From the IMG/VR virus record IMGVR_UViG_2698536379_000013: DNA of 29,429 nt; one strand, given 5' to 3'. Below, piece after piece: positions 4,270 through 24,961 of this stretch. The notes under the pieces are model-generated. The model did no database searches and was not told the DNA's origin. It was given only the letters and a program-made list of their open reading frames with translations. Position 1 is the first letter of the stretch, and each line of letters starts with the position of its first letter. Both the position numbers and the translations under genes were made by a program. The DNA is from a virus. Taxonomy: Duplodnaviria > Heunggongvirae > Uroviricota > Caudoviricetes.

Positions 4270-4615
4270 TCTCTGCTCCTGTTGATACGGAAAGGGAAAC
4301 AGGCACACCGTTATTACGCCGCCCGGTCAGCTCCACCACCATTGAACCGTCAAAATTGCTGTTAATGGTGATGGAATCCAGCGTCAGCCGTGGCTCCCAG
4401 CGACTCAGCGCCACATACACTGCCGACATGACCTGCAGGCGTAATGCCGGATTTTGTGGCTGGTCTATCAGTGCCGACAGCAGGGAACCATATTCCCGAC
4501 GGGCAATGCGGCTACCCTGCGGCGTCAGCAAAATGTCCCGCACCGACTGGCGCAGATGATCAATATCAGTAATGGCTTTACCGCTGGTATTGTTCATCCC
4601 GCTATAAAGCGTCAT
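4256..4615 (-). CDS. Baseplate assembly protein W (gp25-like)
   Basis: 119 aa, ATG start; resembles recalled P2 gpW (DIDHLRQSVRDILLTPQGSRIARREYGSLL...DQPQNPALRLQ). Confidence 0.85.
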   Translation of the reverse strand: MTLYSGMNNTSGKAITDIDHLRQSVRDILLTPQGSRIARREYGSLLSALIDQPQNPALRLQVMSAVYVALSRWEPRLTLDSITINSNFDGSMVVELTGRRNNGVPVSLSVSTGAENGSD

Positions 4616-5190
4616 ACCGGGCCTCCGGTTGTGTCGCCGCCTTTCAGGACGTCAGTATGCTGATGCGCATCAACCACGATCCCGTTAGAACTCATCGCTC
4701 CGCCGCCCTGGGTAACGCCACCATTGATCACCACTTCGCTGTTAATGCGCGTGCGGTCAGCCTCCAGTACAAACTCACTGGTTTTCATGGTGATGTTGTC
4801 AGCGGCCTCAATGACCATTGATTTGATGCCCCTGACATACCAGCGCCCGGTAGTGGGTTCGTATTCAAACCAGCCGCCGTCAGGATGTTCTGTCACGCAG
4901 GCGTCTGCCGACGTCGACGGTGGTGCGAACTGATTCGAATAGACAGCGGGCAGCGCAAAGGCAGTTTCCAGATTGCCGCCCAGACTCAGCAGCACCACCT
5001 GCTCACCTTCCGATGGTCGCCACCATGTGCGGGCATTCCCGGCACGCAGCGTCAGCCAGCTGATCCAGTTGGTTTCAAGCTCGCCCGTTTTCACCCGGCA
5101 AAGCCAGTTTTCCCGGTCCACTTCGGTGACTACACCAGTGCGGATCAGGTTGGTGATAAGGCGCATGATTTCGGTTAGTTGTGCGTTCAT
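4612..5190 (-). CDS. Baseplate spike / assembly protein V (P2 gpV-like)
   Basis: Aligns by eye to recalled P2 gpV from MNAQLTEIMRLITNLIRTG (LIRTGVVTEVD, RTWWRPSEGEQVV). Start set to ATG 5190; the track extension to 5298 is not homologous. Confidence 0.85.
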   Translation of the reverse strand: MNAQLTEIMRLITNLIRTGVVTEVDRENWLCRVKTGELETNWISWLTLRAGNARTWWRPSEGEQVVLLSLGGNLETAFALPAVYSNQFAPPSTSADACVTEHPDGGWFEYEPTTGRWYVRGIKSMVIEAADNITMKTSEFVLEADRTRINSEVVINGGVTQGGGAMSSNGIVVDAHQHTDVLKGGDTTGGPV

Positions 5191-5236
5191 AGGGTTAGGT
5201 TGCACGGACCTTGAATCTATGGCATCAATACGTCCT

Positions 5237-5254
5237 TGTGTGGTAAATGACACA
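5237..5254 (-). promoter_or_regulatory. TGT-N12-ACA dyad, candidate Ogr-type late promoter element upstream of V
   Basis: TGTgtggtaaatgacACA; centre lies 55.5 bp upstream of the V ATG, the same spacing as the dyad upstream of P. The P2 late-promoter dyad consensus is from memory. Confidence 0.45.
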
Positions 5255-5285
5255 AATACAATTCCAATCAAAGAAAGGTAAAAGA

Positions 5286-5816
5286 ATGAGCCATCCAATT
5301 GATTATTACGCTATAGAAGAACACGCAAGAATAATTGAGCAATTATGCTGTTCATCTGAATTTTATTTACAGCGTATATATTCCACACAGAAAGTATATG
5401 ATGGTTCTATAGTAACTGAATTTGAAATGGAGGAGTTATCGTACAACGGATGGTTGGAATATACCATTAGCAACAATCTTATTAGCCTTTGTACAAAACT
5501 ACGAATTCTCCAAGACACTAGTGAACATGAGTGGAACCCAGATTACTCACCTGAGAAAGAAGCATTTGAAGAACATGAAAATATACTTTTTGTTATAGAT
5601 GGTCATGTTAAAGATTCTATACGCGAATGCTGCAATAAAATTATTCACGCATTAAGTTTTGAGTTAACAAAAAAGACCGGCAAAAATGGAATAAAATATT
5701 GGGACGGTTCTATTATTGCTTCTGGGGTTCAAAACAAAAAAAACTGGAAAATTAAAATAGACCTTTTCCCTTTTTGCCAAAGCATAAAAAGTTATTTAAG
5801 TTTATTAAGAGCGTAA
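5286..5816 (+). CDS. Hypothetical protein (AT-rich insert between V and S), function unknown
   Basis: 176 aa from ATG 5286 (MSHPIDYY...), preceded by gaaagg SD-like sequence and a sigma70-like -10 (TACAAT 5257-5262). Opposite strand to the tail operon; visibly AT-rich; no recognisable motif. Confidence 0.6.
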   Translation: MSHPIDYYAIEEHARIIEQLCCSSEFYLQRIYSTQKVYDGSIVTEFEMEELSYNGWLEYTISNNLISLCTKLRILQDTSEHEWNPDYSPEKEAFEEHENILFVIDGHVKDSIRECCNKIIHALSFELTKKTGKNGIKYWDGSIIASGVQNKKNWKIKIDLFPFCQSIKSYLSLLRA

Positions 5817-5821
5817 ACATT

Positions 5822-6274
5822 CTAATTTTTCATCAATAAATACTTTAAAAGTAAATCTCTTACTTCATTTTCAGTATGTTCATTTAAACCCAGCAATTTT
5901 CGGGATGGATACTTAATGACTCCCCCCTTTGGACTGACGCGATCGCGCAGACCGTAGTGATGAACACGGGCAATACGCTGTACCTTACCTTCAAACTGTA
6001 CGCTGGCAGAATCCGCGCTGGCGGCAGTTCTCAGGTATTTTGTGGTGCGCAGCTTTGCAAACATCTGACGTTTGATGCGCCCCTTCTTGCTGCGTGCTGT
6101 TACCCTGCGCGGCTCATAACTGCTGCCATCTGGATTGCGCTGCATCCTGATATTCTGCTGCTGTGTCCGGCGCAGTTCCTGCGCCAGCTGGCGCATCATT
6201 CGGCTTCTTGCGGCTGGTTCCAGATTCGCCAGCAAAGCACTCAGCCAGTCGTCCACCTTCTGCAGTTCAGCCAC
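5822..6274 (-). CDS. Tail completion / virion morphogenesis protein (P2 gpS-like)
   Basis: 150 aa in the conserved position between R and V. Start codon is GTG at 6274, so the start is uncertain. The last ~25 codons lie in AT-rich sequence. Confidence 0.65.
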   Translation of the reverse strand: MAELQKVDDWLSALLANLEPAARSRMMRQLAQELRRTQQQNIRMQRNPDGSSYEPRRVTARSKKGRIKRQMFAKLRTTKYLRTAASADSASVQFEGKVQRIARVHHYGLRDRVSPKGGVIKYPSRKLLGLNEHTENEVRDLLLKYLLMKN

Positions 6275-6698
6275 GTTTCACCGTCCACATTTCTTCAGGT
6301 TCATCGGGTTCCGCTACTGCTTCAACGCTCGACACACTTCCGTCAGTGCTGACCAGCACACGTTCCGTCAGTTGCAGGTTGAGGCTGATATCACAGACAT
6401 CGTTGCGCAGAATATCCACCTCAAAGGTGAATAACTTTTCCCGTAACGCCGGATTATTGATGGCATCGGGCTGGTTATCACGCAGCCACAGCAAAACCGG
6501 GGCCATCAGCAGATTCTGGTCGCCGCTGAAATCCTCAATCACCACGTTGAGGGTATAACGGTACTCCCATGACATGGAGCTGGCCCCCGTGGCAACCAGC
6601 GAACCGTTATCCACAAACAGATGCAGCTTATCCGGGTTATTGCGGACATAAGGCACTGCTTTATTGAGGGCGTGGCGCAGGGATTGTGGTTTGTTCAC
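6267..6698 (-). CDS. Tail completion protein R (P2 gpR-like)
   Basis: Resembles recalled P2 gpR (KPQSLRHALNKAV..., FVDNGS, RYTLNVVIEDFSGD, WLRDNQPD). Start set to GTG 6698 with AGGAG 7 nt upstream; the track start at 6719 is TTG. Confidence 0.75.
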   Translation of the reverse strand: MNKPQSLRHALNKAVPYVRNNPDKLHLFVDNGSLVATGASSMSWEYRYTLNVVIEDFSGDQNLLMAPVLLWLRDNQPDAINNPALREKLFTFEVDILRNDVCDISLNLQLTERVLVSTDGSVSSVEAVAEPDEPEEMWTVKRG

Positions 6699-11337: not shown

Positions 11338-11355
11338 TGTACCGACAACCACACA
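11338..11355. promoter_or_regulatory. TGT-N12-ACA dyad in the O/P divergent intergenic region (candidate Ogr-type late promoter element)
   Basis: TGTaccgacaaccacACA; centre 55.5 bp upstream of the P ATG. Confidence 0.5.
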
Positions 11356-11401
11356 AACCGCAGGCGGGGAAAGCCTTCATTCAAGGCTGTAGGTTTGTGC
11401 C

Positions 11402-13168
11402 ATGAACACCACACTGACACCCGCAGATCTCGATCCCCGTCGGCAGGCCATGCTGCTGTACTTTCAGGGATACCGCGTAGCCCGCATTGCTGAAATGCTG
11501 GGCGAGAAAGTTGCAACCGTTCACAGCTGGAAAAAACGCGACAAGTGGGGTGACTATGGGCCGCTGGATCAGATGCAGCTCACCACCGCCGCCCGCTACT
11601 GCCAGCTCATTATGAAGGAGCACAAAGAAGGGAAAGATTTCAAAGAAATTGACCTGCTGGCGCGCCAGTCGGAGCGCCACGCGCGGATCGGCAAGTTTAA
11701 CAATGGCGGCAACGAAGCCGACTTAAACCCTAACGTCGCCAACCGCAACAAAGGGCCGCGCCGTCAGCCGGAAAAGAATGTTTTCACCGATGAACAGATT
11801 GAGAAGCTGGAAGAAATCTTCCATTCCTCCATGTTCAACTACCAGCGCCACTGGTGGGAAGCCGGAAAAACCAATCGCATCCGCAACCTGCTGAAGTCTC
11901 GCCAGATCGGCGCGACCTTTTACTTTGCCCGTGAAGCCCTGATTGACGCCCTGCTGACCGGACGTAACCAGATTTTCCTTTCCGCCAGTAAGGCACAGGC
12001 CCACGTCTTTAAGCAGTACATCATCGACTTCGCCAAAGAAGTCGAGGTGGAGCTGAAAGGCGATCCGATGGTGCTTCCTAACGGGGCCACGCTTTACTTC
12101 CTCGGCACCAATGCCCGCACGGCCCAGAGTTACCACGGCAACCTGTATCTGGATGAATATTTCTGGATACCGAAATTCCAGGAGCTGCGCAAAGTGGCTT
12201 CCGGTATGGCTATTCACAAAAAATGGCGACAAACCTATTTTTCCACGCCATCCAGCCTGACACACAGTGCTTATCCGTTCTGGTCCGGTGCGCTGTTCAA
12301 CCGAGGGCGCAACAAAGCCGATAAGGTGGACATCGACCTGTCCCACAGCAATCTGGCCCCCGGCCTGCTGTGCGCAGACGGGCAGTACCGCCAGATAGTC
12401 ACCGTGGAAGATGCGGTGCGCGGCGGCTGTAACCTGTTCGACCTTGACCAGTTGCGCATGGAGTACAGCCCGGACGAATACCAGAACCTGCTGATGTGCG
12501 AGTTCGTGGACGATCTCGCGTCCGTGTTCCCGCTCAGCGAGCTGCAGGCGTGCATGGTGGACAGTTGGGAAGTCTGGACCGACTTTCATGCACTGGCCCT
12601 GCGCCCGTTTGGCTGGCGCGAAGTGTGGATCGGATATGACCCGGCGAAAGGTACGCAGAACGGCGACAGCGCCGGATGCGTGGTGGTGGCGCCGCCAGCC
12701 GTGCCGGGCGGTAAGTTCCGCATTCTTGAGCGTCACCAGTGGCGCGGAATGGACTTCCGCGCCCAGGCTGACGCCATCAAAAAACTGACCGAACAGTACA
12801 ACGTGACCTATATCGGTATCGACTCAACCGGCGTTGGTCACGGGGTTTACGAGAACGTGAAAGCGTTTTTTCCTGCCGTCCGGGAGTTTGTCTACAACCC
12901 CAACGTTAAAAACGCCCTGGTACTCAAGGCCTACGACATTATCAGCCACCGCCGTCTGGAGTTTGACGCCGGACACACCGACATAGCGCAGTCCTTTATG
13001 GCAATCCGTCGCGCCACCACCGCCAGTGGCAACCGCCCGACCTATGAAGCCAGCCGCAGCGAAGAAGCCAGCCACGCCGATCTGGCCTGGGCAACGATGC
13101 ACGCACTGTTTAACGAACCGCTGCAGGGCGAATCCGCCAATACCAGCAATATTGTGGAGATTTTTTGA
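11402..13168 (+). CDS. Terminase ATPase (large) subunit (P2 gpP-like)
   Basis: 588 aa; extensive match to recalled P2 gpP (NRNKGPRRQP, IRNLLKSRQIGAT, GRNQIFLSASKAQAHVFKQYII, GTNARTAQSYHGNLY, KKWRQTYFSTPSS, GWREVW, HQWRGMDFRAQA, SRSEEASHAD). Confidence 0.95.
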   Translation: MNTTLTPADLDPRRQAMLLYFQGYRVARIAEMLGEKVATVHSWKKRDKWGDYGPLDQMQLTTAARYCQLIMKEHKEGKDFKEIDLLARQSERHARIGKFNNGGNEADLNPNVANRNKGPRRQPEKNVFTDEQIEKLEEIFHSSMFNYQRHWWEAGKTNRIRNLLKSRQIGATFYFAREALIDALLTGRNQIFLSASKAQAHVFKQYIIDFAKEVEVELKGDPMVLPNGATLYFLGTNARTAQSYHGNLYLDEYFWIPKFQELRKVASGMAIHKKWRQTYFSTPSSLTHSAYPFWSGALFNRGRNKADKVDIDLSHSNLAPGLLCADGQYRQIVTVEDAVRGGCNLFDLDQLRMEYSPDEYQNLLMCEFVDDLASVFPLSELQACMVDSWEVWTDFHALALRPFGWREVWIGYDPAKGTQNGDSAGCVVVAPPAVPGGKFRILERHQWRGMDFRAQADAIKKLTEQYNVTYIGIDSTGVGHGVYENVKAFFPAVREFVYNPNVKNALVLKAYDIISHRRLEFDAGHTDIAQSFMAIRRATTASGNRPTYEASRSEEASHADLAWATMHALFNEPLQGESANTSNIVEIF

Positions 13169-14210: not shown

Positions 14211-14909
14211 TTATTTGTTTCTTCTTTGTTCACGCCTTGTCTTGGCTTCGATAAGGCGTTGAGGTTCAGTGTAAAGCCGTTCTAAAAAAAGATAGGTAAA
14301 ATCTTCAAGATCCTCAGCAGCAGCTTTATCCAAAATACCTTCATGCGCTCCATCATTTCCGTCATCTTTAACGCATTCAGCTAGTTCCCTTAAAGCTTCA
14401 GGCAGTAGATGATTATCAAATAACCACTCCATTCTTAACCCTAGGCTTCTCCTTATTTTTTGCGCAGGCCCTTGCTCCCCATCAGGAAGAAGTCCTTTTG
14501 TGGCATAATCAAGGCAAAGCCTAAACATGGTTGCTGCTGCATTATAACAACCTATAGCCAAACATTTCGCCCCTTCCTCATATGCACTATTGATATGCTC
14601 AGGTAAGAACTCTGGTGGCTCCTCTACTGCTAAGTCTGCCGGTGATATAGGCCTAACAACCTCTGCAACTTCCTTTAAGCCGAATATTCCACTTTCCCAA
14701 TTATAGCCATCTAAAGTTTTATTTTTCGTTAAAGGTCTGCAAAGAAACATTGTCGTTTTATGACACTCTCGGCAAACACAATAGACCTCGTACTCGTATG
14801 TTTTACCCCCGCCCAATGCATTGTAAACCCTAGTGCAATTCAGCCCATTAACATCAAACGCTATTTTTTGTGATCCACATCGTGGACAGTCATCCACTAA
14901 CATAACCAT
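14211..14909 (-). CDS. Hypothetical zinc-ribbon protein (cargo gene between portal gene and cos)
   Basis: 232 aa, ATG with AGGGAGGAG SD. N-terminal Cys cluster CPRCG...CVCRECH; C-terminal alpha-type region with GNDGAH motif, loosely reminiscent of DUF4145-type domains (recall only). AT-richer than flanking genes. Confidence 0.65.
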   Translation of the reverse strand: MVMLVDDCPRCGSQKIAFDVNGLNCTRVYNALGGGKTYEYEVYCVCRECHKTTMFLCRPLTKNKTLDGYNWESGIFGLKEVAEVVRPISPADLAVEEPPEFLPEHINSAYEEGAKCLAIGCYNAAATMFRLCLDYATKGLLPDGEQGPAQKIRRSLGLRMEWLFDNHLLPEALRELAECVKDDGNDGAHEGILDKAAAEDLEDFTYLFLERLYTEPQRLIEAKTRREQRRNK

Positions 14910-15198: not shown

Positions 15199-15810
15199 CT
15201 ACGTAACCACAGTTAATGTGTGCATCCTGTCTCGAATTGCATCACACGTCTCATCAAAAAGCTTGGTGATGGTTGTACGGTTCAACTCTGCCTCTTTCCA
15301 ATAATTTTGCCAGTCAAATTCTGGATCGCCATGCTGAAACGATATTGACTCTGAAAGGCATTCCTTCCGGAAACGGTCCAAGATTATATAAACCTCTGGT
15401 GAGATGAACGGTTTGTTAGACTCAACACTTGTAACAAAAGTATTAAATGCATCGAAAAAAACTTTCAACCTTCTAAATTTTCTCTCTTCAAATGGTTCGT
15501 TGGGGTCAAAATGATCCAGCGCAGGCCTCAGCTTAAGCACGCTTTCTCTGGTTTCAAACATCGAATTCCAAATGAGACTATATGCTGATAACTCCTTATC
15601 AAAATACGCTTTCGTTACATAAACAGAATTGTCTAACTTAGCCTTTATTCTTTCATTAGTTGCACTCAGTTGTGATTGAAATTCAGCAATATCTTTGTTT
15701 AGCCGCGACTTATATCTTTCTAAATAAACTTTCCCGATCCAAACAAATATGCCAGATGCAACAAAAGACACCCCACCCAACGAAGCCAGAATTTTAAAGA
15801 CTAAATCCAT
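15199..15810 (-). CDS. Hypothetical membrane-anchored protein (SOS-operon cargo)
   Basis: 203 aa, ATG with AGGTGGGGG SD; N-terminal TM helix (ILASLGGVSFVASGIFVWIG) then soluble domain; AT-rich; last gene before the terminator. Confidence 0.65.
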   Translation of the reverse strand: MDLVFKILASLGGVSFVASGIFVWIGKVYLERYKSRLNKDIAEFQSQLSATNERIKAKLDNSVYVTKAYFDKELSAYSLIWNSMFETRESVLKLRPALDHFDPNEPFEERKFRRLKVFFDAFNTFVTSVESNKPFISPEVYIILDRFRKECLSESISFQHGDPEFDWQNYWKEAELNRTTITKLFDETCDAIRDRMHTLTVVT

Positions 15811-22876: not shown

Positions 22877-23902
22877 ATGACGATCAGAAAACAGCCGAAC
22901 GGAAAGTGGTTGTGTGAATGCTACCCAAACGGGCGAGATGGCAAACGCGTACGTAAACAATTTGCGACAAAAGGCGAAGCCATTGCGTTTGAACGTTTCA
23001 CAATGGAAGAAGTGAACAAAAAACCGTGGCTGGGGGAAAAGGAAGATCGGCGACATTTGTCAGAAGTGATTGAACAATGGTACTCACTTTACGGGCAGAC
23101 GCTTGCTGACCCCAAACGCCTGATGGCGAAACTTAAAATTATCTGTAATGGTCTGGGCGATCCCATCGCTTCAGAACTGACCGCCGGTGATTTTACGAAA
23201 TACCGGGAAGCACGGCTAAAGGGTGAAGTGCGAAATGAAGATGGCGCGCTTATGTCGCCTGTTAAGCCCCGCACGGTAAATCTTGAACAACGCAACCTGT
23301 CATCGGTTTTTGGCACACTGAAAAAGCTGGGACACTGGTCAGCACCAAACCCACTGGCAGGACTTCCTACATTTAAAATTGCTGAAGGTGAGCTGGCCTT
23401 TCTTTCCATGGACGAAATCAAGCGCCTGTTGGATGCCTGCGCAGATTCTCAAAGCCCCAGCCTGCTGATGATTGCAAAAATATGCCTGGCCACCGGAGCA
23501 CGCTGGAGTGAAGCAGAAAATCTGCAGGGACACCAGTTGTCAAAATACCGCATCACATACACCAAGACGAAGGGCAAGAAAAACCGTACCGTGCCAATAT
23601 CTCAGGATCTGTATGACGAACTTCCCAAAAATAGAGGGAAATTATTCACACCATGCAGAAAAGCCTTTGAGCGGGCAGTAAAGCGGGCCGGTATCGAACT
23701 GCCAGAAGGACAATGCACCCACGTGCTACGCCATACATTCGCCAGCCACTTTATGATGAATGGCGGTAATATACTTGTGCTTAAAGAAATTTTAGGCCAT
23801 ACCGATATAAAAATGACCATGATTTATGCTCATTTCGCACCAGAGCATCTTGAAGATGCGGTGACAAAAAATCCTTTAGCCACTCTTTTTTCTACTAATT
23901 AA
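22877..23902 (+). CDS. int: Tyrosine integrase (P2/186-type)
   Basis: 341 aa with C-terminal catalytic region HVLRHTFASHF...LGHTDIKMTMIYAHF; adjacent to the repressor gene and upstream of the att core. Confidence 0.95.
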   Translation: MTIRKQPNGKWLCECYPNGRDGKRVRKQFATKGEAIAFERFTMEEVNKKPWLGEKEDRRHLSEVIEQWYSLYGQTLADPKRLMAKLKIICNGLGDPIASELTAGDFTKYREARLKGEVRNEDGALMSPVKPRTVNLEQRNLSSVFGTLKKLGHWSAPNPLAGLPTFKIAEGELAFLSMDEIKRLLDACADSQSPSLLMIAKICLATGARWSEAENLQGHQLSKYRITYTKTKGKKNRTVPISQDLYDELPKNRGKLFTPCRKAFERAVKRAGIELPEGQCTHVLRHTFASHFMMNGGNILVLKEILGHTDIKMTMIYAHFAPEHLEDAVTKNPLATLFSTN

Positions 23903-23914
23903 AAGGTAATTATT

Positions 23915-24811
23915 ATGACAGAGCTCTACCTTTTAGATCGAAACATAATTGATCTAATGAATAAGCACAACAATTCTTCTAATATCCCAGAACCTAATAG
24001 AATTGATATGCTTAATAAATTAAAAGCATTAGATATCAAAGGAAATACTTTCTCACCTTTACTATCAATAATAGAAGGAAAAACCCATAAAAAACTTGAC
24101 AGTAACGGCAAATTAGAAATCATAAAAACACCTAATAAAAAAATAAGAAAATTAATTATAGAGGATAGTGAAATTGTAAAATCATTTATTAAAGAAGCTA
24201 ACACTGATTATGATTTCCTAACATCCAATGTAAATAAACTATCAAAAATAATATATGAAAAAGAAACTGACAGATTAATAGATAAAAAAACAAAATTCCT
24301 TGATAAGCTACAAGAAAAAATAGGGGAAACAAAGAAAGTAGAACAACGAGAGAATACATATTATGAGTTTAAAGAGATAGTAAACGAGTTTAATGAATTT
24401 AAAAACCAACCGTTTACAATTGTAGCTCTGATGTATATCTTTGGAAGCCAACGAGCTGAGAAGATATTAAAATTTAAAAGTAAAAATTTTTCATCTTATA
24501 ACCCAATTGCTGATTTTAATCATTACAAAACCACTATCCAACTTAGATTTGATGATAGATTAAAAGATAATGCAAACATACATTTTATTTCACTTGATTC
24601 AGATATTGAATTTATACAGCAACTTTTTCATCCTAATAATGCTAAAATTAGTAGTTCAACAAACTACACTAATACTTTAGCTATTGAGTGGACAATTAAT
24701 AAAAATTTTCTACAGAGTGAAATACCGGAAACAAAGGGCGAACTCAACAATCAAGAATTGTTTTACTCATGCTTTCAAGACTTGTATGGGTACGATGCCC
24801 GCGTGTCTTAA
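23915..24811 (+). CDS. Hypothetical protein (AT-rich cargo between int and att); N-terminus resembles a PIN-domain first strand
   Basis: 298 aa, ATG 12 nt after the int stop with AAGG SD. N-terminal MTELYLLDRNIIDLM resembles the h-h-D-T-N-h-h motif that opens PIN nucleases (inference from a single motif). Very AT-rich, Lys/Asn-rich. Confidence 0.6.
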   Translation: MTELYLLDRNIIDLMNKHNNSSNIPEPNRIDMLNKLKALDIKGNTFSPLLSIIEGKTHKKLDSNGKLEIIKTPNKKIRKLIIEDSEIVKSFIKEANTDYDFLTSNVNKLSKIIYEKETDRLIDKKTKFLDKLQEKIGETKKVEQRENTYYEFKEIVNEFNEFKNQPFTIVALMYIFGSQRAEKILKFKSKNFSSYNPIADFNHYKTTIQLRFDDRLKDNANIHFISLDSDIEFIQQLFHPNNAKISSSTNYTNTLAIEWTINKNFLQSEIPETKGELNNQELFYSCFQDLYGYDARVS

Positions 24812-24961
24812 CAACAGGTGATAAATAGCAGACTTAATACCTACAATGTGGCGGCATTTTGGCGGCAGAACATTAAAAAAGCGTAAAACGGACAAACACA
24901 AAATAACAATAACAGACTGATTTTAAACGAAACTTAATGTTTTTGTTATGGTAAAAATGGT

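Follow-up and report, generated by a model that had tools for sequence, protein, structure and literature searches.

The interval between tail genes S and V of phage P2, the classical orf30 slot, is non-essential and is one of three documented moron regions (PMC6823313; PMC3091744). Because the locus studied here occupies that slot, the kind of feature is already known, and a moron at this site is textbook P2 biology, no news in itself. The antiviral hotspots of P2 and P4, such as gpA-gpQ (old/tin), resemble the V/S junction in being variable loci between conserved core genes. Rousset 2022 (PMC9122126) analysed the gpA-gpQ locus only, and the orf30 or baseplate region is not mentioned there. 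Moura de Sousa 2026 (NAR; PMC13586616) reported a defence hotspot among the tail genes of P2; its location, 'downstream of GpL', is too coarse to be equated with the S/V junction.

The window analysed here, 29,429 nucleotides long, corresponds as a whole to Cartapus, a P2-like prophage in E. coli LF82. A first-pass annotation had placed a 176-aa ORF on the plus strand between V and S, antisense to the late operon, and this ORF is present at 5286-5816. We refer to it as the cargo gene. Its product is the 'hypothetical protein' WP_000019234 / YP_010663986 of phage Cartapus / E. coli LF82. The full S gene spans 5822-6274 on the minus strand with its stop codon at 5822-5824, leaving the 5-bp gap between the two stops that had been described. 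Features of the junction are as follows.

4612-5190, minus strand: V (baseplate spike), the left-hand anchor; Pfam Phage_base_V and Apex
5195-5930, no strand assigned: exchanged low-GC block containing the pV promoter region, the cargo gene and the S 3′ end; from alignment and GC content
5237-5254, no strand assigned: TGT-N12-ACA dyad, the Ogr/Delta-type activator site of late promoter pV; from spacing and comparison
5257-5262, plus strand: candidate -10 element TACAAT for the cargo gene; relaxed scan, weak, with no good -35
5273-5278, plus strand: Shine-Dalgarno-like GAAAGG, 7 nt 5′ of the ATG at 5286; read from the sequence
5286-5816, plus strand: cargo gene, 176 aa (LF82_787 / CARTA_14 / YP_010663986); ORF call and PHROG 18838
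5622-5648, plus strand: codons of R113-E-C-C-N117-K118-I-I-H121, a putative active-site helix; conservation and model helix 112-120
5822-5925, minus strand: AT-rich S 3′ end encoding the swapped gpS C-terminal tail (stop plus ~34 codons); GC content and alignment
5926-6274, minus strand: conserved core of S (tail completion), the right-hand recombination anchor; Pfam Phage_tail_S, E=4e-42

Position and orientation are shared with P2 orf30, which is likewise antisense and located between the S stop and the pV dyad; as is typical of S/V morons, the cargo ORF lies outside the late units. Both genes are low in GC (0.34 for P2 orf30, 0.32 for the cargo ORF), and both are non-essential and replaced by other genes in relatives. 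The proteins themselves are unrelated. P2 Orf30 has 261 aa against 176 aa for the Cartapus protein, and homology to Orf30 (NP_046770) was rejected after BLASTP returned E=0.22 with no meaningful alignment. The surroundings differ as well: in P2 a terminator is annotated between S and orf30, but in Cartapus S and the cargo gene are 5 bp apart and our scan detected no terminator between them. In contrast to the P2 slot, the S tail and the pV promoter belong to the swapped block in the Cartapus lineage.

Composition and boundaries of the exchanged block

The cargo gene had been described as AT-rich amid GC-rich tail genes, and this is borne out by a GC content of 0.32 for the ORF and ~0.57 for its flanks. 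Low GC extends on both sides of the ORF: values range from 0.28 to 0.39 within 5195-5930 (0.32 overall), and from 0.28 to 0.35 across 5200-5900. Third-position GC is 0.27 in the cargo ORF, 0.65 in V and 0.61 in the S core. Such atypical composition, a sign of horizontal origin, is another mark of S/V ('orf30') morons. When aligned to the empty-site sequences 500465-1 and KP12, similarity breaks right after the V start codon and resumes near S codon 115. V matches its relatives as far as its start codon, and the S core has ~95% DNA identity to empty-site relatives. For all cargo types, breakpoints fall just past the RIARVHHYGLRD segment of S.

The first-pass annotation had also noted that the end of S is AT-rich and proposed that an insertion remodelled it. 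The AT-rich end is real, with GC of 0.30 and GC3 of 0.29 in 5822-5925 compared to 0.57 and 0.61 in the remainder of S, and it comprises ~35 codons rather than the ~25 suggested. Remodelling does not hold. The tail is divergent yet alignable to gpS from empty sites, with Y122, R125, LLG, N131, E135 and RD retained, and AT-rich S tails were found in 4/4 cargo-bearing phages compared; other cargo types bring their own tails. The AT-rich tail is homologous to other gpS C-termini and is inherited together with the cargo, as is the pV region, so S was exchanged and not remodelled; by alignment, what is swapped comprises the gpS C-terminal tail, the cargo and the pV promoter, in that order. These comparisons show a module of ~735 bp that moves between peduoviruses by homologous recombination, with crossovers in the S core and at the V start. 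Among phages, the S tail is matched best by other enterobacterial peduoviruses, with identity not exceeding 66%, and the search for its origin found no low-GC donor. The exchange unit thus holds the C-terminal tail of an essential tail-completion protein together with the pV promoter, showing that an accessory cargo can be tightly wired into the late operon, and the pattern suggests that ~35 residues of gpS tolerate wholesale replacement.

The left part of the block contains the TGT-N12-ACA dyad, which had been noted next to the cargo ORF and upstream of V and was located at 5237-5254. With 6 occurrences in the window against 7.7 expected, the motif shows no enrichment, and its significance is positional. 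Its centre lies 55.5 bp from the V ATG, a spacing identical to that of the annotated P2 pV activator site; in the P2 annotation the V transcript begins at the ATG. The dyad was found at a constant distance in 8/8 junction variants compared, despite differing surrounding sequence. A search for known RNA families in 4500-6500 returned only sub-threshold snoRNA noise.

Coding status, slot occupancy and transcription of the cargo gene

The stop-free run at the cargo ORF is 189 codons, a length reached in 0/5,000 composition-matched simulations (mean 70, maximum 159) and thus longer than expected by chance. Ratios of dN/dS are 0.08-0.12 against homologues at 84% and 74% identity, and S and V fall in the same range. 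As judged by these codon comparisons, the ORF is shown to be a real coding gene under purifying selection. Its start was assigned to 5286. The upstream ATG at 5247, used in some annotations, was rejected because MSHPI is the N-terminus across the whole family and the Salmonella copy opens with TTG at the position equivalent to 5286; the GAAAGG at 5273-5278 further supports this choice. The gene had been credited with its own promoter-like and Shine-Dalgarno elements, of which the latter stands as a GAAAGG-type sequence. The promoter is at best a weak candidate, consisting only of the -10-like TACAAT, from which transcription would be predicted to start near 5269, and no consensus sigma-70 promoter for the cargo gene passes a stricter scan. 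TACAAT is present at the equivalent place in the 84% homologue, overlaps the dyad in the Enterobacter copy, and is absent from the Salmonella copy.

Comparison of related prophages at the V/S junction, one of the checks proposed in the first-pass annotation, found it mostly empty. In an even sample of E. coli (1,047 records), 49 rows contained both V and S; 31 were empty, 16 carried other cargo and 2 carried Cartapus-type cargo. Empty-site relatives with ~95% identity in V and S, isolated phages included, have a V/S junction of 68 bp, and the cargo gene is therefore dispensable for morphogenesis. About one third of related E. coli prophages have a different cargo in the slot, and the junction hosts at least eight different cargos, including an FRG-domain protein (PADLOC PDC-S15, E=8.5e-32), a TIR-domain protein and DUF6216. 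Like the P2/P4 hotspots, the V/S slot rapidly swaps single- or few-gene cargo, defence-type proteins (FRG/PDC-S15, TIR) among them; this cargo-rich junction is outside the loci mined by Rousset 2022. The low-GC block is ≥99% identical in 22 of 5,426 complete E. coli genomes, and homologues as distant as 58-61% identity still occupy the V/S slot in Salmonella, Enterobacter and IMG/VR contigs. One copy is intact within a decayed prophage.

Transcription was examined by look-up in published LF82 RNA-seq data covering five conditions (PMC9928086, S1 Table, log2(fpkm+5)); the B1 and B6 columns are bacteria-only cultures, here taken as DMEM. LF82_787 has values of 5.06-5.97 in the B1, B6 and MB1 columns, compared to 2.3-3.3 for V and S and 8.1-9.3 for CI. 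The cargo transcript is thus ~10-fold above its silent tail-gene neighbours in 3/5 conditions. It is near background in LB overnight and ~10-fold up in B1/B6 and at 1 h in macrophages. These data show that the LF82 lysogen transcribes the cargo gene on its own, with the tail operons silent, as the first-pass annotation had thought possible. Autonomous transcription in the lysogen next to silent late genes, and absence or replacement in close relatives, are also properties of S/V ('orf30') morons. The authors of the RNA-seq study did not call LF82_787 a moron because of its background level in LB overnight, the only condition used for their cut-off; LF82 therefore has a condition-dependent prophage gene that the original screen missed. 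The moron that they did name, LF82_789, is a separate gene in the gpA-gpQ region and not the cargo ORF. A CRISPRi preprint on LF82 contains nothing on the cargo gene, and a literature search for its accessions found no paper mentioning them.

Together these results show that Cartapus carries an accessory ('moron') module in its equivalent of the classical P2 orf30 slot. Empty relatives, the Orf30-like slot, lysogen RNA-seq and the lack of a family match agree with the original proposal of a moron of unclassified family. The finding named there as grounds for abandoning the idea, conservation of a homologue with a role in morphogenesis among P2/186 relatives, did not emerge.

The cargo protein family and its conserved site

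The cargo protein is 20.6 kDa with a pI of 5.4 and contains no hydrophobic segment, and no signal peptide or membrane segment was predicted. Its only profile match is PHROG 18838 (unannotated; E=7e-127), and the family comprises 464 cluster representatives. Pfam, NCBIfam and PADLOC gave no family match for the protein, nor for 109 diverse relatives overall. With PADLOC-DB 2.0 there was no match for the Cartapus protein at E≤10, and the 109 family members gave scattered single weak matches to ten different models; the P2/P4 hotspot cargos differ in this respect, the Cartapus family being absent from PADLOC. A PDB sequence-profile search with the family gave one spurious match (E=0.28). Structure prediction, also suggested at the outset, produced a confident AF2 model (pLDDT 90.3, pTM 0.86) with no close structural match. 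The modelled fold is a helical bundle plus a three-stranded beta meander.

Seven polar residues, H3, R73, D77, R113, N117, K118 and H121, form an invariant cluster that in the model looks like an active or ligand-binding site. SIRECCNK[IV]IHA is invariant within the close family, and among 109 diverse members the conservation of R113, N117, K118 and H121 is ≥90%; these four residues are also unchanged in every genomic context. Catalysis by cysteine was considered and rejected: C116 is invariant in 12 selected sequences and <90% conserved in the 109-member alignment. Membership in HEPN was likewise not supported by motif spacing or profile comparisons. The spacing from R113 to H121 is R-x7-H, in contrast to R-x4-6-H in HEPN toxins and Abi proteins (HepT of HEPN-MNT, PDB 7ae2, 5yep); no HEPN Pfam match was found among the 109 members, and hhalign against a 28-sequence PF05168 profile, with this one HEPN family as template, gave probabilities of 0.2% and 0.1%. 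Comparison to a single HEPN sequence was also negative. It was the R-x7-H spacing and the negative hhalign results that led us to reject HEPN membership on this template. We are left with a sizeable family that lacks a Pfam, NCBIfam or PADLOC model or a structural relative, yet has a strictly conserved enzyme-like site.

Homologues occur well beyond phages. In Aliivibrio and Vibrio arrays, homologues at 38-44% identity each stand alone as one ORF flanked by consecutive attC-like repeats of ~130 nt; in Pseudoalteromonas the flanking repeats are shorter. Repeats bracket the ORF in three loci (L008, L009, L010), and those of L008 fold as end-to-end imperfect hairpins (z about -2.4); we take the attC-like repeats to resemble the VCR repeats of V. 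cholerae. No integrase was seen on the short contigs that bear these homologues. They are compact, self-sufficient one-gene units, like the cassettes of uncharacterised function studied by Darracq et al. (bioRxiv 10.1101/2024.07.02.601686), who found that ~18% of tested V. cholerae cassettes lacking an assigned function are anti-phage. One of their 16 anti-phage cassettes, 'Esos', is described only as HEPN-like. The Cartapus copy differs from integron cassettes: it has no attC, flanking repeat or hairpin, is embedded at a phage operon junction by homologous exchange, and has its own upstream region.

Further members are found in soil alphaproteobacteria, a Chloroflexia MAG and a Dokdonia (Flavobacteriia) MAG, and the homologue is AT-rich even within a Chloroflexia contig of 56% GC. 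One distant member lies directly adjacent to PDC-S08 in a shared low-GC islet; neighbours of others are DUF4238 with an integrase and transposases, an NTase-HEPN protein (PDC-S09) with ParB/IS110, and a prophage region. Two distant loci, L050 and L051, carry a 983-aa AAA_21/SMC_N ATPase 4-5 bp upstream. Since these ATPases are 85% identical to each other, the loci were counted as one system type and not as independent cases; a search for PDB sequence relatives of the ATPases found none. An ATPase + effector layout of the Septu/PARIS-like kind is found in this system type only and not in Cartapus, where the cargo gene is solo. A conserved partner gene was sought and rejected, as downstream ORFs of distant members are unrelated to one another. 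The family is thus present on three independent gene-shuffling platforms: a phage hotspot, integron arrays and genomic islands.

Candidate functions of the cargo protein

A profile of this type, with an orphan family, an enzyme-like site and shuffling platforms, has repeatedly predicted new defence genes. Tentatively, and with slightly less than even confidence, we infer that the cargo is a lysogen-expressed stand-alone conflict or defence effector, of the single-gene anti-phage or abortive-infection type. This reading draws on the dispensability of the slot, the nature of other hotspot cargo, selection, expression in the lysogen, one-gene mobility, defence-type neighbours and enzyme-like conservation. 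The protein would act in the lysogen in conflicts between mobile elements, the basic His/Arg/Lys/Asn site may have a nucleic acid or a nucleotide as its substrate, and the protein might be kept in check until a phage infects. While Cartapus makes virions, the cargo gene is probably silenced by convergent late transcription running through S. A stronger version, possible though on the doubtful side, is that the protein is a founding member of a new single-gene anti-phage family, with a novel fold combination (helical bundle plus beta meander) and a new catalytic site, R/D...R-x3-N-K-x2-H, and shared across phage morons, integrons and an SMC-like ATPase form. If so, the peduovirus V/S junction would be a defence hotspot open to mining, in which a late promoter and a piece of an essential tail gene are exchanged along with the cargo.

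A moron that adjusts host physiology, kept for a niche benefit through effects on lysogen metabolism, stress tolerance or intracellular survival, is unlikely, although several observations are in accord with it. The cargo transcript is condition-dependent, with low levels in LB overnight and higher ones in B1/B6 and macrophages; LF82 is adherent-invasive, and macrophages elicit a strong response from other Cartapus accessory genes. Non-defence cargo is also found in integron cassettes and moron slots (bioRxiv 10.1101/2024.07.02.601686; PMC9122126). A spread across marine Vibrionaceae, soil alphaproteobacteria and the Chloroflexia and Dokdonia MAGs, however, implies that the function must be generic and not specific to a host niche. 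Neither does the protein have a signal peptide or membrane segment, and its gene neighbours are of mobile-element or defence type rather than metabolic operons.

It is distinctly improbable that the gene is a selfish stabilisation or toxin module, a toxin-like or addiction factor that helps to retain its own carrier, be it prophage or integron array, and contributes nothing to phage defence. Toxin-antitoxin cassettes are the commonest recognisable systems in chromosomal integrons (bioRxiv 10.1101/2024.07.02.601686), and small size, the enzyme-like invariant site, sporadic distribution, AT-rich horizontal transfer and retention in a decayed prophage would all suit such a module. Yet no cognate antitoxin was found, the cargo being the only ORF in both the cassette and the V/S slot; the downstream partners of distant members are mutually unrelated, and the gene is expressed in LF82 with no apparent harm.

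Lower still we place a counter-defence gene with which the phage overcomes host immunity during infection or induction. Anti-defence genes can occupy phage accessory slots, the product is a small soluble protein of acidic pI (5.4), and anti-RM or anti-CRISPR genes are known in a few P2-like phages, although they are rare there (28/1,511; PMC13586616). The cargo gene, in contrast, is lysogen-expressed and oriented against the lytic operons, and homologues in chromosomal integrons and non-phage chromosomal sites fit a cell-side function. Strict retention of a catalytic-looking cluster over 20% identity would also be unusual for mimic-type inhibitors.

Finally, an accessory role in tail morphogenesis, such as that of an assembly chaperone or of an adaptor fitted to the variant S tail, could account for a gene embedded between two tail genes and strictly co-inherited with its own S-tail variant, but is largely refuted and scarcely credible: close relatives, isolated phages included, lack the gene and have the 68-bp junction, homologues reside where tail genes are absent, in integron arrays and chromosomes, the cargo is antisense to the late operon and transcribed while the tail genes are silent, and unrelated cargos (TIR, FRG, DUF6216) bring their own S tails too, so that the linkage of cargo and tail reflects the geometry of recombination.

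The cargo gene and the V/S slot

Positions 4600-6300 of the window are 100% identical by megablast to Escherichia phage Cartapus (OV696611 / NC_070909; Peduoviridae, Elveevirus), described as P2-like prophage 4 of adherent-invasive E. coli LF82 (PMC9928086); LF82 positions (NC_011993.1) were converted to window positions by subtracting 2,744,333. The cargo gene is a moron module occupying the orf30 slot of P2, with an exchange unit, purifying selection and transcription in the lysogen. Pfam confirmed its neighbours, also naming gpR and gpW.

4612-5190, minus strand: gpV (Pfam)
5237-5254: TGT-N12-ACA dyad (motif search)
5286-5816, plus strand: cargo ORF, 176 aa (ORF call)
5822-6274, minus strand: gpS (Pfam)

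The first-pass annotation had described an AT-rich ORF between V and S, beside the dyad and ending 5 bp from the S stop, and this layout was borne out in full. GC content is 0.28-0.35 over 5200-5900 versus ~0.57 on either side, and GC3 is 0.27 in the ORF and 0.29 in the S tail versus 0.65 in V and 0.61 in the S core. The stop-free run of 189 codons was reached in none of 5,000 first-order Markov simulations of DNA of matching composition (mean 70, maximum 159). The AT-rich end of S is also present, but it covers ~35 codons (5822-5925) and not ~25 as first described. Since TGT-N12-ACA occurs in the window no more often than expected (6 versus 7.7), only the position of the dyad counts. The start codon is ATG 5286; the N-terminus MSHPI is conserved family-wide, and in the Salmonella copy the corresponding start codon is TTG. 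The LF82 table and the PHROG profile use a 189-aa version starting at ATG 5247, which lies within the dyad. Of the promoter and Shine-Dalgarno element originally proposed, the latter stands as GAAAGG before ATG 5286, but the promoter is reduced to a -10-like TACAAT at 5257-5262, found in a relaxed scan and lacking a usable -35; neither a consensus sigma-70 promoter nor an intrinsic terminator was found in a scan of 5000-6100. The antisense convergent layout without a terminator suggests that late transcription of the O operon would silence the cargo gene while Cartapus assembles virions.

Comparison with related prophages had been proposed as a check, and relatives ~95% identical in V and S, among them E. 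coli phage 500465-1, Klebsiella phage KP12 and many Kp48xx phages, have an empty junction of 68 bp. Alignment with them breaks directly past the V start codon and picks up inside S near codon 115. In the P2 record the non-essential, antisense Orf30 (261 aa) is placed between the S stop/O-operon terminator and the activator-binding site annotated for pV, with V transcription annotated as starting at the V ATG; the dyad centre lies 55.5 bp from that ATG in P2 and Cartapus alike. The two cargo proteins are unrelated (E=0.22). Three moron regions have been described in P2-like phages, the TO region, Z/fun and orf30, and R18C carries a different 741-bp ORF in the orf30 slot (PMC6823313; PMC3091744).

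Related V and S genes were found in 1,047 E. coli records, and 22 of those carry the cargo block at ≥99% identity. Even sampling along the ranked records yielded 49 rows with V and S together: 31 are empty (1,132-bp span), 2 carry Cartapus-type cargo and 16 other cargo, namely DUF6216 (n=4), TIR-domain (n=2) and FRG-domain (n=1) proteins and hypotheticals (n=9, of at least 7 sizes). For the FRG protein there is a match to PADLOC candidate PDC-S15 (E=8.5e-32), and for the TIR protein there are Pfam TIR_2 and weak matches to PDC-S66, SpbK and ThsB.

L018, L019, L020, L021: V/S junctions of E. coli prophages with TIR, FRG/PDC-S15, DUF6216 and 386-aa hypothetical cargos

Three of four alternative cargos examined are antisense, like that of Cartapus, and two of the four run into the 3′ end of S, for 23 and 59 nt. 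The TIR-domain cargo shares the strand of the late genes, and the DUF6216 cargo occurs too in E. coli B-derived strains, e.g. Nico21(DE3) and H84/H85.

Exchange unit and selection

Low GC in the S tail was seen in all 4 diverged phages with the cargo gene (last 105 nt, 0.30-0.38 versus 0.57-0.61 in the remaining S). Every other cargo type has its own S tail, divergent but alignable, with a GC content of 0.31-0.48 and a breakpoint immediately past the conserved RIARVHHYGLRD segment. On the other flank, the sequence from the V ATG to the cargo differs with each type, and TGT-N12-ACA always keeps the same distance from V. Since each cargo type has its own S tail and pV region, the moving unit comprises S tail, cargo and pV promoter, and it moves through recombination within the S core and at the start of V. 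What was first taken for an insertion that remodelled S is more aptly called a swap of blocks from one peduovirus to another, in which the S tail travels with the cargo. A search for the donor of the low-GC tail did not find it, the best phage matches reaching ≤66% identity.

Homologues at 84%, 74% (Salmonella) and 60% (Enterobacter) identity occupy the same slot in the same orientation, the last two also keeping the 5-bp distance to the S stop, and all 18 IMG/VR matches, down to 58% identity, adjoin V. With a dN/dS of 0.08-0.12, versus 0.09-0.19 for S and 0.13-0.14 for V, the cargo is a real gene under purifying selection. In a decayed peduovirus remnant (IMG/VR contig L047, 3577-4534) it is intact at 61% identity, with V cut to 107 aa and S lost, 199-aa and 504-aa ORFs taking the place of S.

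Transcription in the lysogen

Expression of LF82_787 / CARTA_14 was taken from S1 Table of PMC9928086 as log2(fpkm+5). Values were 3.51/2.71 in LB overnight, 5.06/5.16 in B1 and 5.89/5.97 in B6, which we took to be the cultures of bacteria alone in DMEM that the table legend mentions, and 5.11/5.28 and 4.57/4.38 after 1 h and 6 h in macrophages. Over the B1, B6 and MB1 columns the gene stands at 5.06-5.97, V and S at 2.3-3.3 and CI at 8.1-9.3, that is, ~30-58 fpkm for the cargo versus 0-5 for its neighbours, in agreement with the lysogen expression first suggested. The data appear to be strand-specific, as + and - profiles are plotted apart (PMC9928086). Moron calls by the LF82 authors used LB overnight data only with a 5-fold cut-off (PMC9928086), and for this reason the gene was overlooked; the two Cartapus morons called there, LF82_783 and LF82_789, both lie outside the V/S slot.

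The cargo family and its possible function

The cargo belongs to an orphan family whose members travel singly, as one-gene units, on gene-shuffling platforms of several kinds. Slot, transcription and family membership all agree with the initial description of a moron, possibly lysogen-expressed, of no known family. Matches at 38-44% identity were found in species-representative genomes of Aliivibrio, Vibrio hepatarius, two Pseudoalteromonas, a Chloroflexia MAG and a Dokdonia MAG. In Aliivibrio the homologue is the sole ORF between two copies of a ~130-nt repeat, present in 10 copies spaced 590-2,218 nt apart, starting TAACAA and ending GGCGTTA; the homologues of Vibrio hepatarius and of one Pseudoalteromonas locus are bracketed likewise. 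The Aliivibrio repeats form imperfect end-to-end hairpins (z about -2.4). The bracketed loci of the three genera are integron cassette arrays, and their repeats resemble the VCR repeats of V. cholerae. Family genes have a GC content of 0.37-0.38 even within contigs of 0.46 and 0.56. Two of the other contexts are:

L005, 7986-9637: low-GC two-gene islet (0.37-0.38; contig ~0.46-0.50), family member followed by a 5′-nucleotidase-family gene
L050, 3045-6606, and L051, 4700-6600: family member 4-5 bp downstream of a 983-aa AAA_21/SMC_N ATPase

The 5′-nucleotidase-family protein matches PADLOC candidate PDC-S08 (E=6.5e-140). The ATPase-linked type, known from Phenylobacterium and from a metagenome island that also has methylase, GIY-YIG and UvrD genes, contains a distant family member (~20% identity, invariant residues unchanged), and the pair may be a two-gene system of ATPase and effector; as the two ATPases are 85% identical, the linkage was counted once. 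The ATPase N-terminus reads like a PHP-type phosphoesterase (DPHVH), and the protein has no sequence relative in the PDB. Elsewhere, a Brevundimonas member accompanies ParB, IS110 and an NTase-HEPN protein (PDC-S09), another lies with DUF4238, an integrase and transposases, the L006 context is an AlpA-type element, a Methylocystis member is within a prophage-like region, and two further contexts are unremarkable. Anti-T7 activity of DUF4238 was shown by Rousset 2022 (PMC9122126). Closely linked downstream ORFs of three loci are unrelated to one another; the family is therefore without a conserved partner.

The cargo is quite possibly an effector in conflict or defence that acts on its own, to judge by its companions at the slot (TIR, FRG/PDC-S15), the link to integrons, neighbours of defence type and an invariant site like that of an enzyme. 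Among V. cholerae cassettes of unknown function that were tested, about 18% were anti-phage (bioRxiv 10.1101/2024.07.02.601686). A moron acting on host physiology is an unlikely reading of this lysogen-transcribed gene, a selfish or toxin module is improbable, and an anti-defence gene is quite improbable. A morphogenetic accessory is scarcely credible, and a small share of the probability goes to none of these readings. The slot and the moron concept are already established, and a defence hotspot within P2 tail genes was reported in a 2026 survey (PMC13586616); the S/V junction is not specifically treated by Rousset 2022 (PMC9122126) or the iLund4u preprint. The cargo family is uncharacterised, its protein's accessions receiving no mention in the literature searched, and it has a reasonable chance of being a new defence gene.

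Other features of the Cartapus prophage were as follows:

1-1350: tail-fibre C-terminal and tail-fibre-assembly gene copies in opposite orientations, beside a recombinase-family gene (LF82 annotation)
11338-11355 and 11396-11413: two further TGT-N12-ACA dyads, divergent intergenic region of the scaffold (O) and terminase (P) operons
14211-14909 and 15199-15810, minus strand: DUF4145-domain protein LF82_788 and 203-aa hypothetical LF82_789, cargo of the gpA-gpQ (old/tin) hotspot
23651-24856, plus strand: 401-aa hypothetical, low-GC segment from integrase to right prophage end

The right end lies at ~25,021, beyond which are the host genes glaH-lhgO-gabD, and the position of the 401-aa gene agrees with the 'integrase to att site' accessory location of P2-like phages (PMC13586616). 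The paired dyads are presumably activator sites of the late promoters pO and pP. Positions 1-1350 look like an invertible host-range segment, the recombinase-family gene being located at or just before the window start. LF82_788 and LF82_789 are both low-GC and strongly induced in macrophages, log2(fpkm+5) rising from ~4.7 and ~5.5 in LB to ~9.5 and ~10.5 at 6 h.
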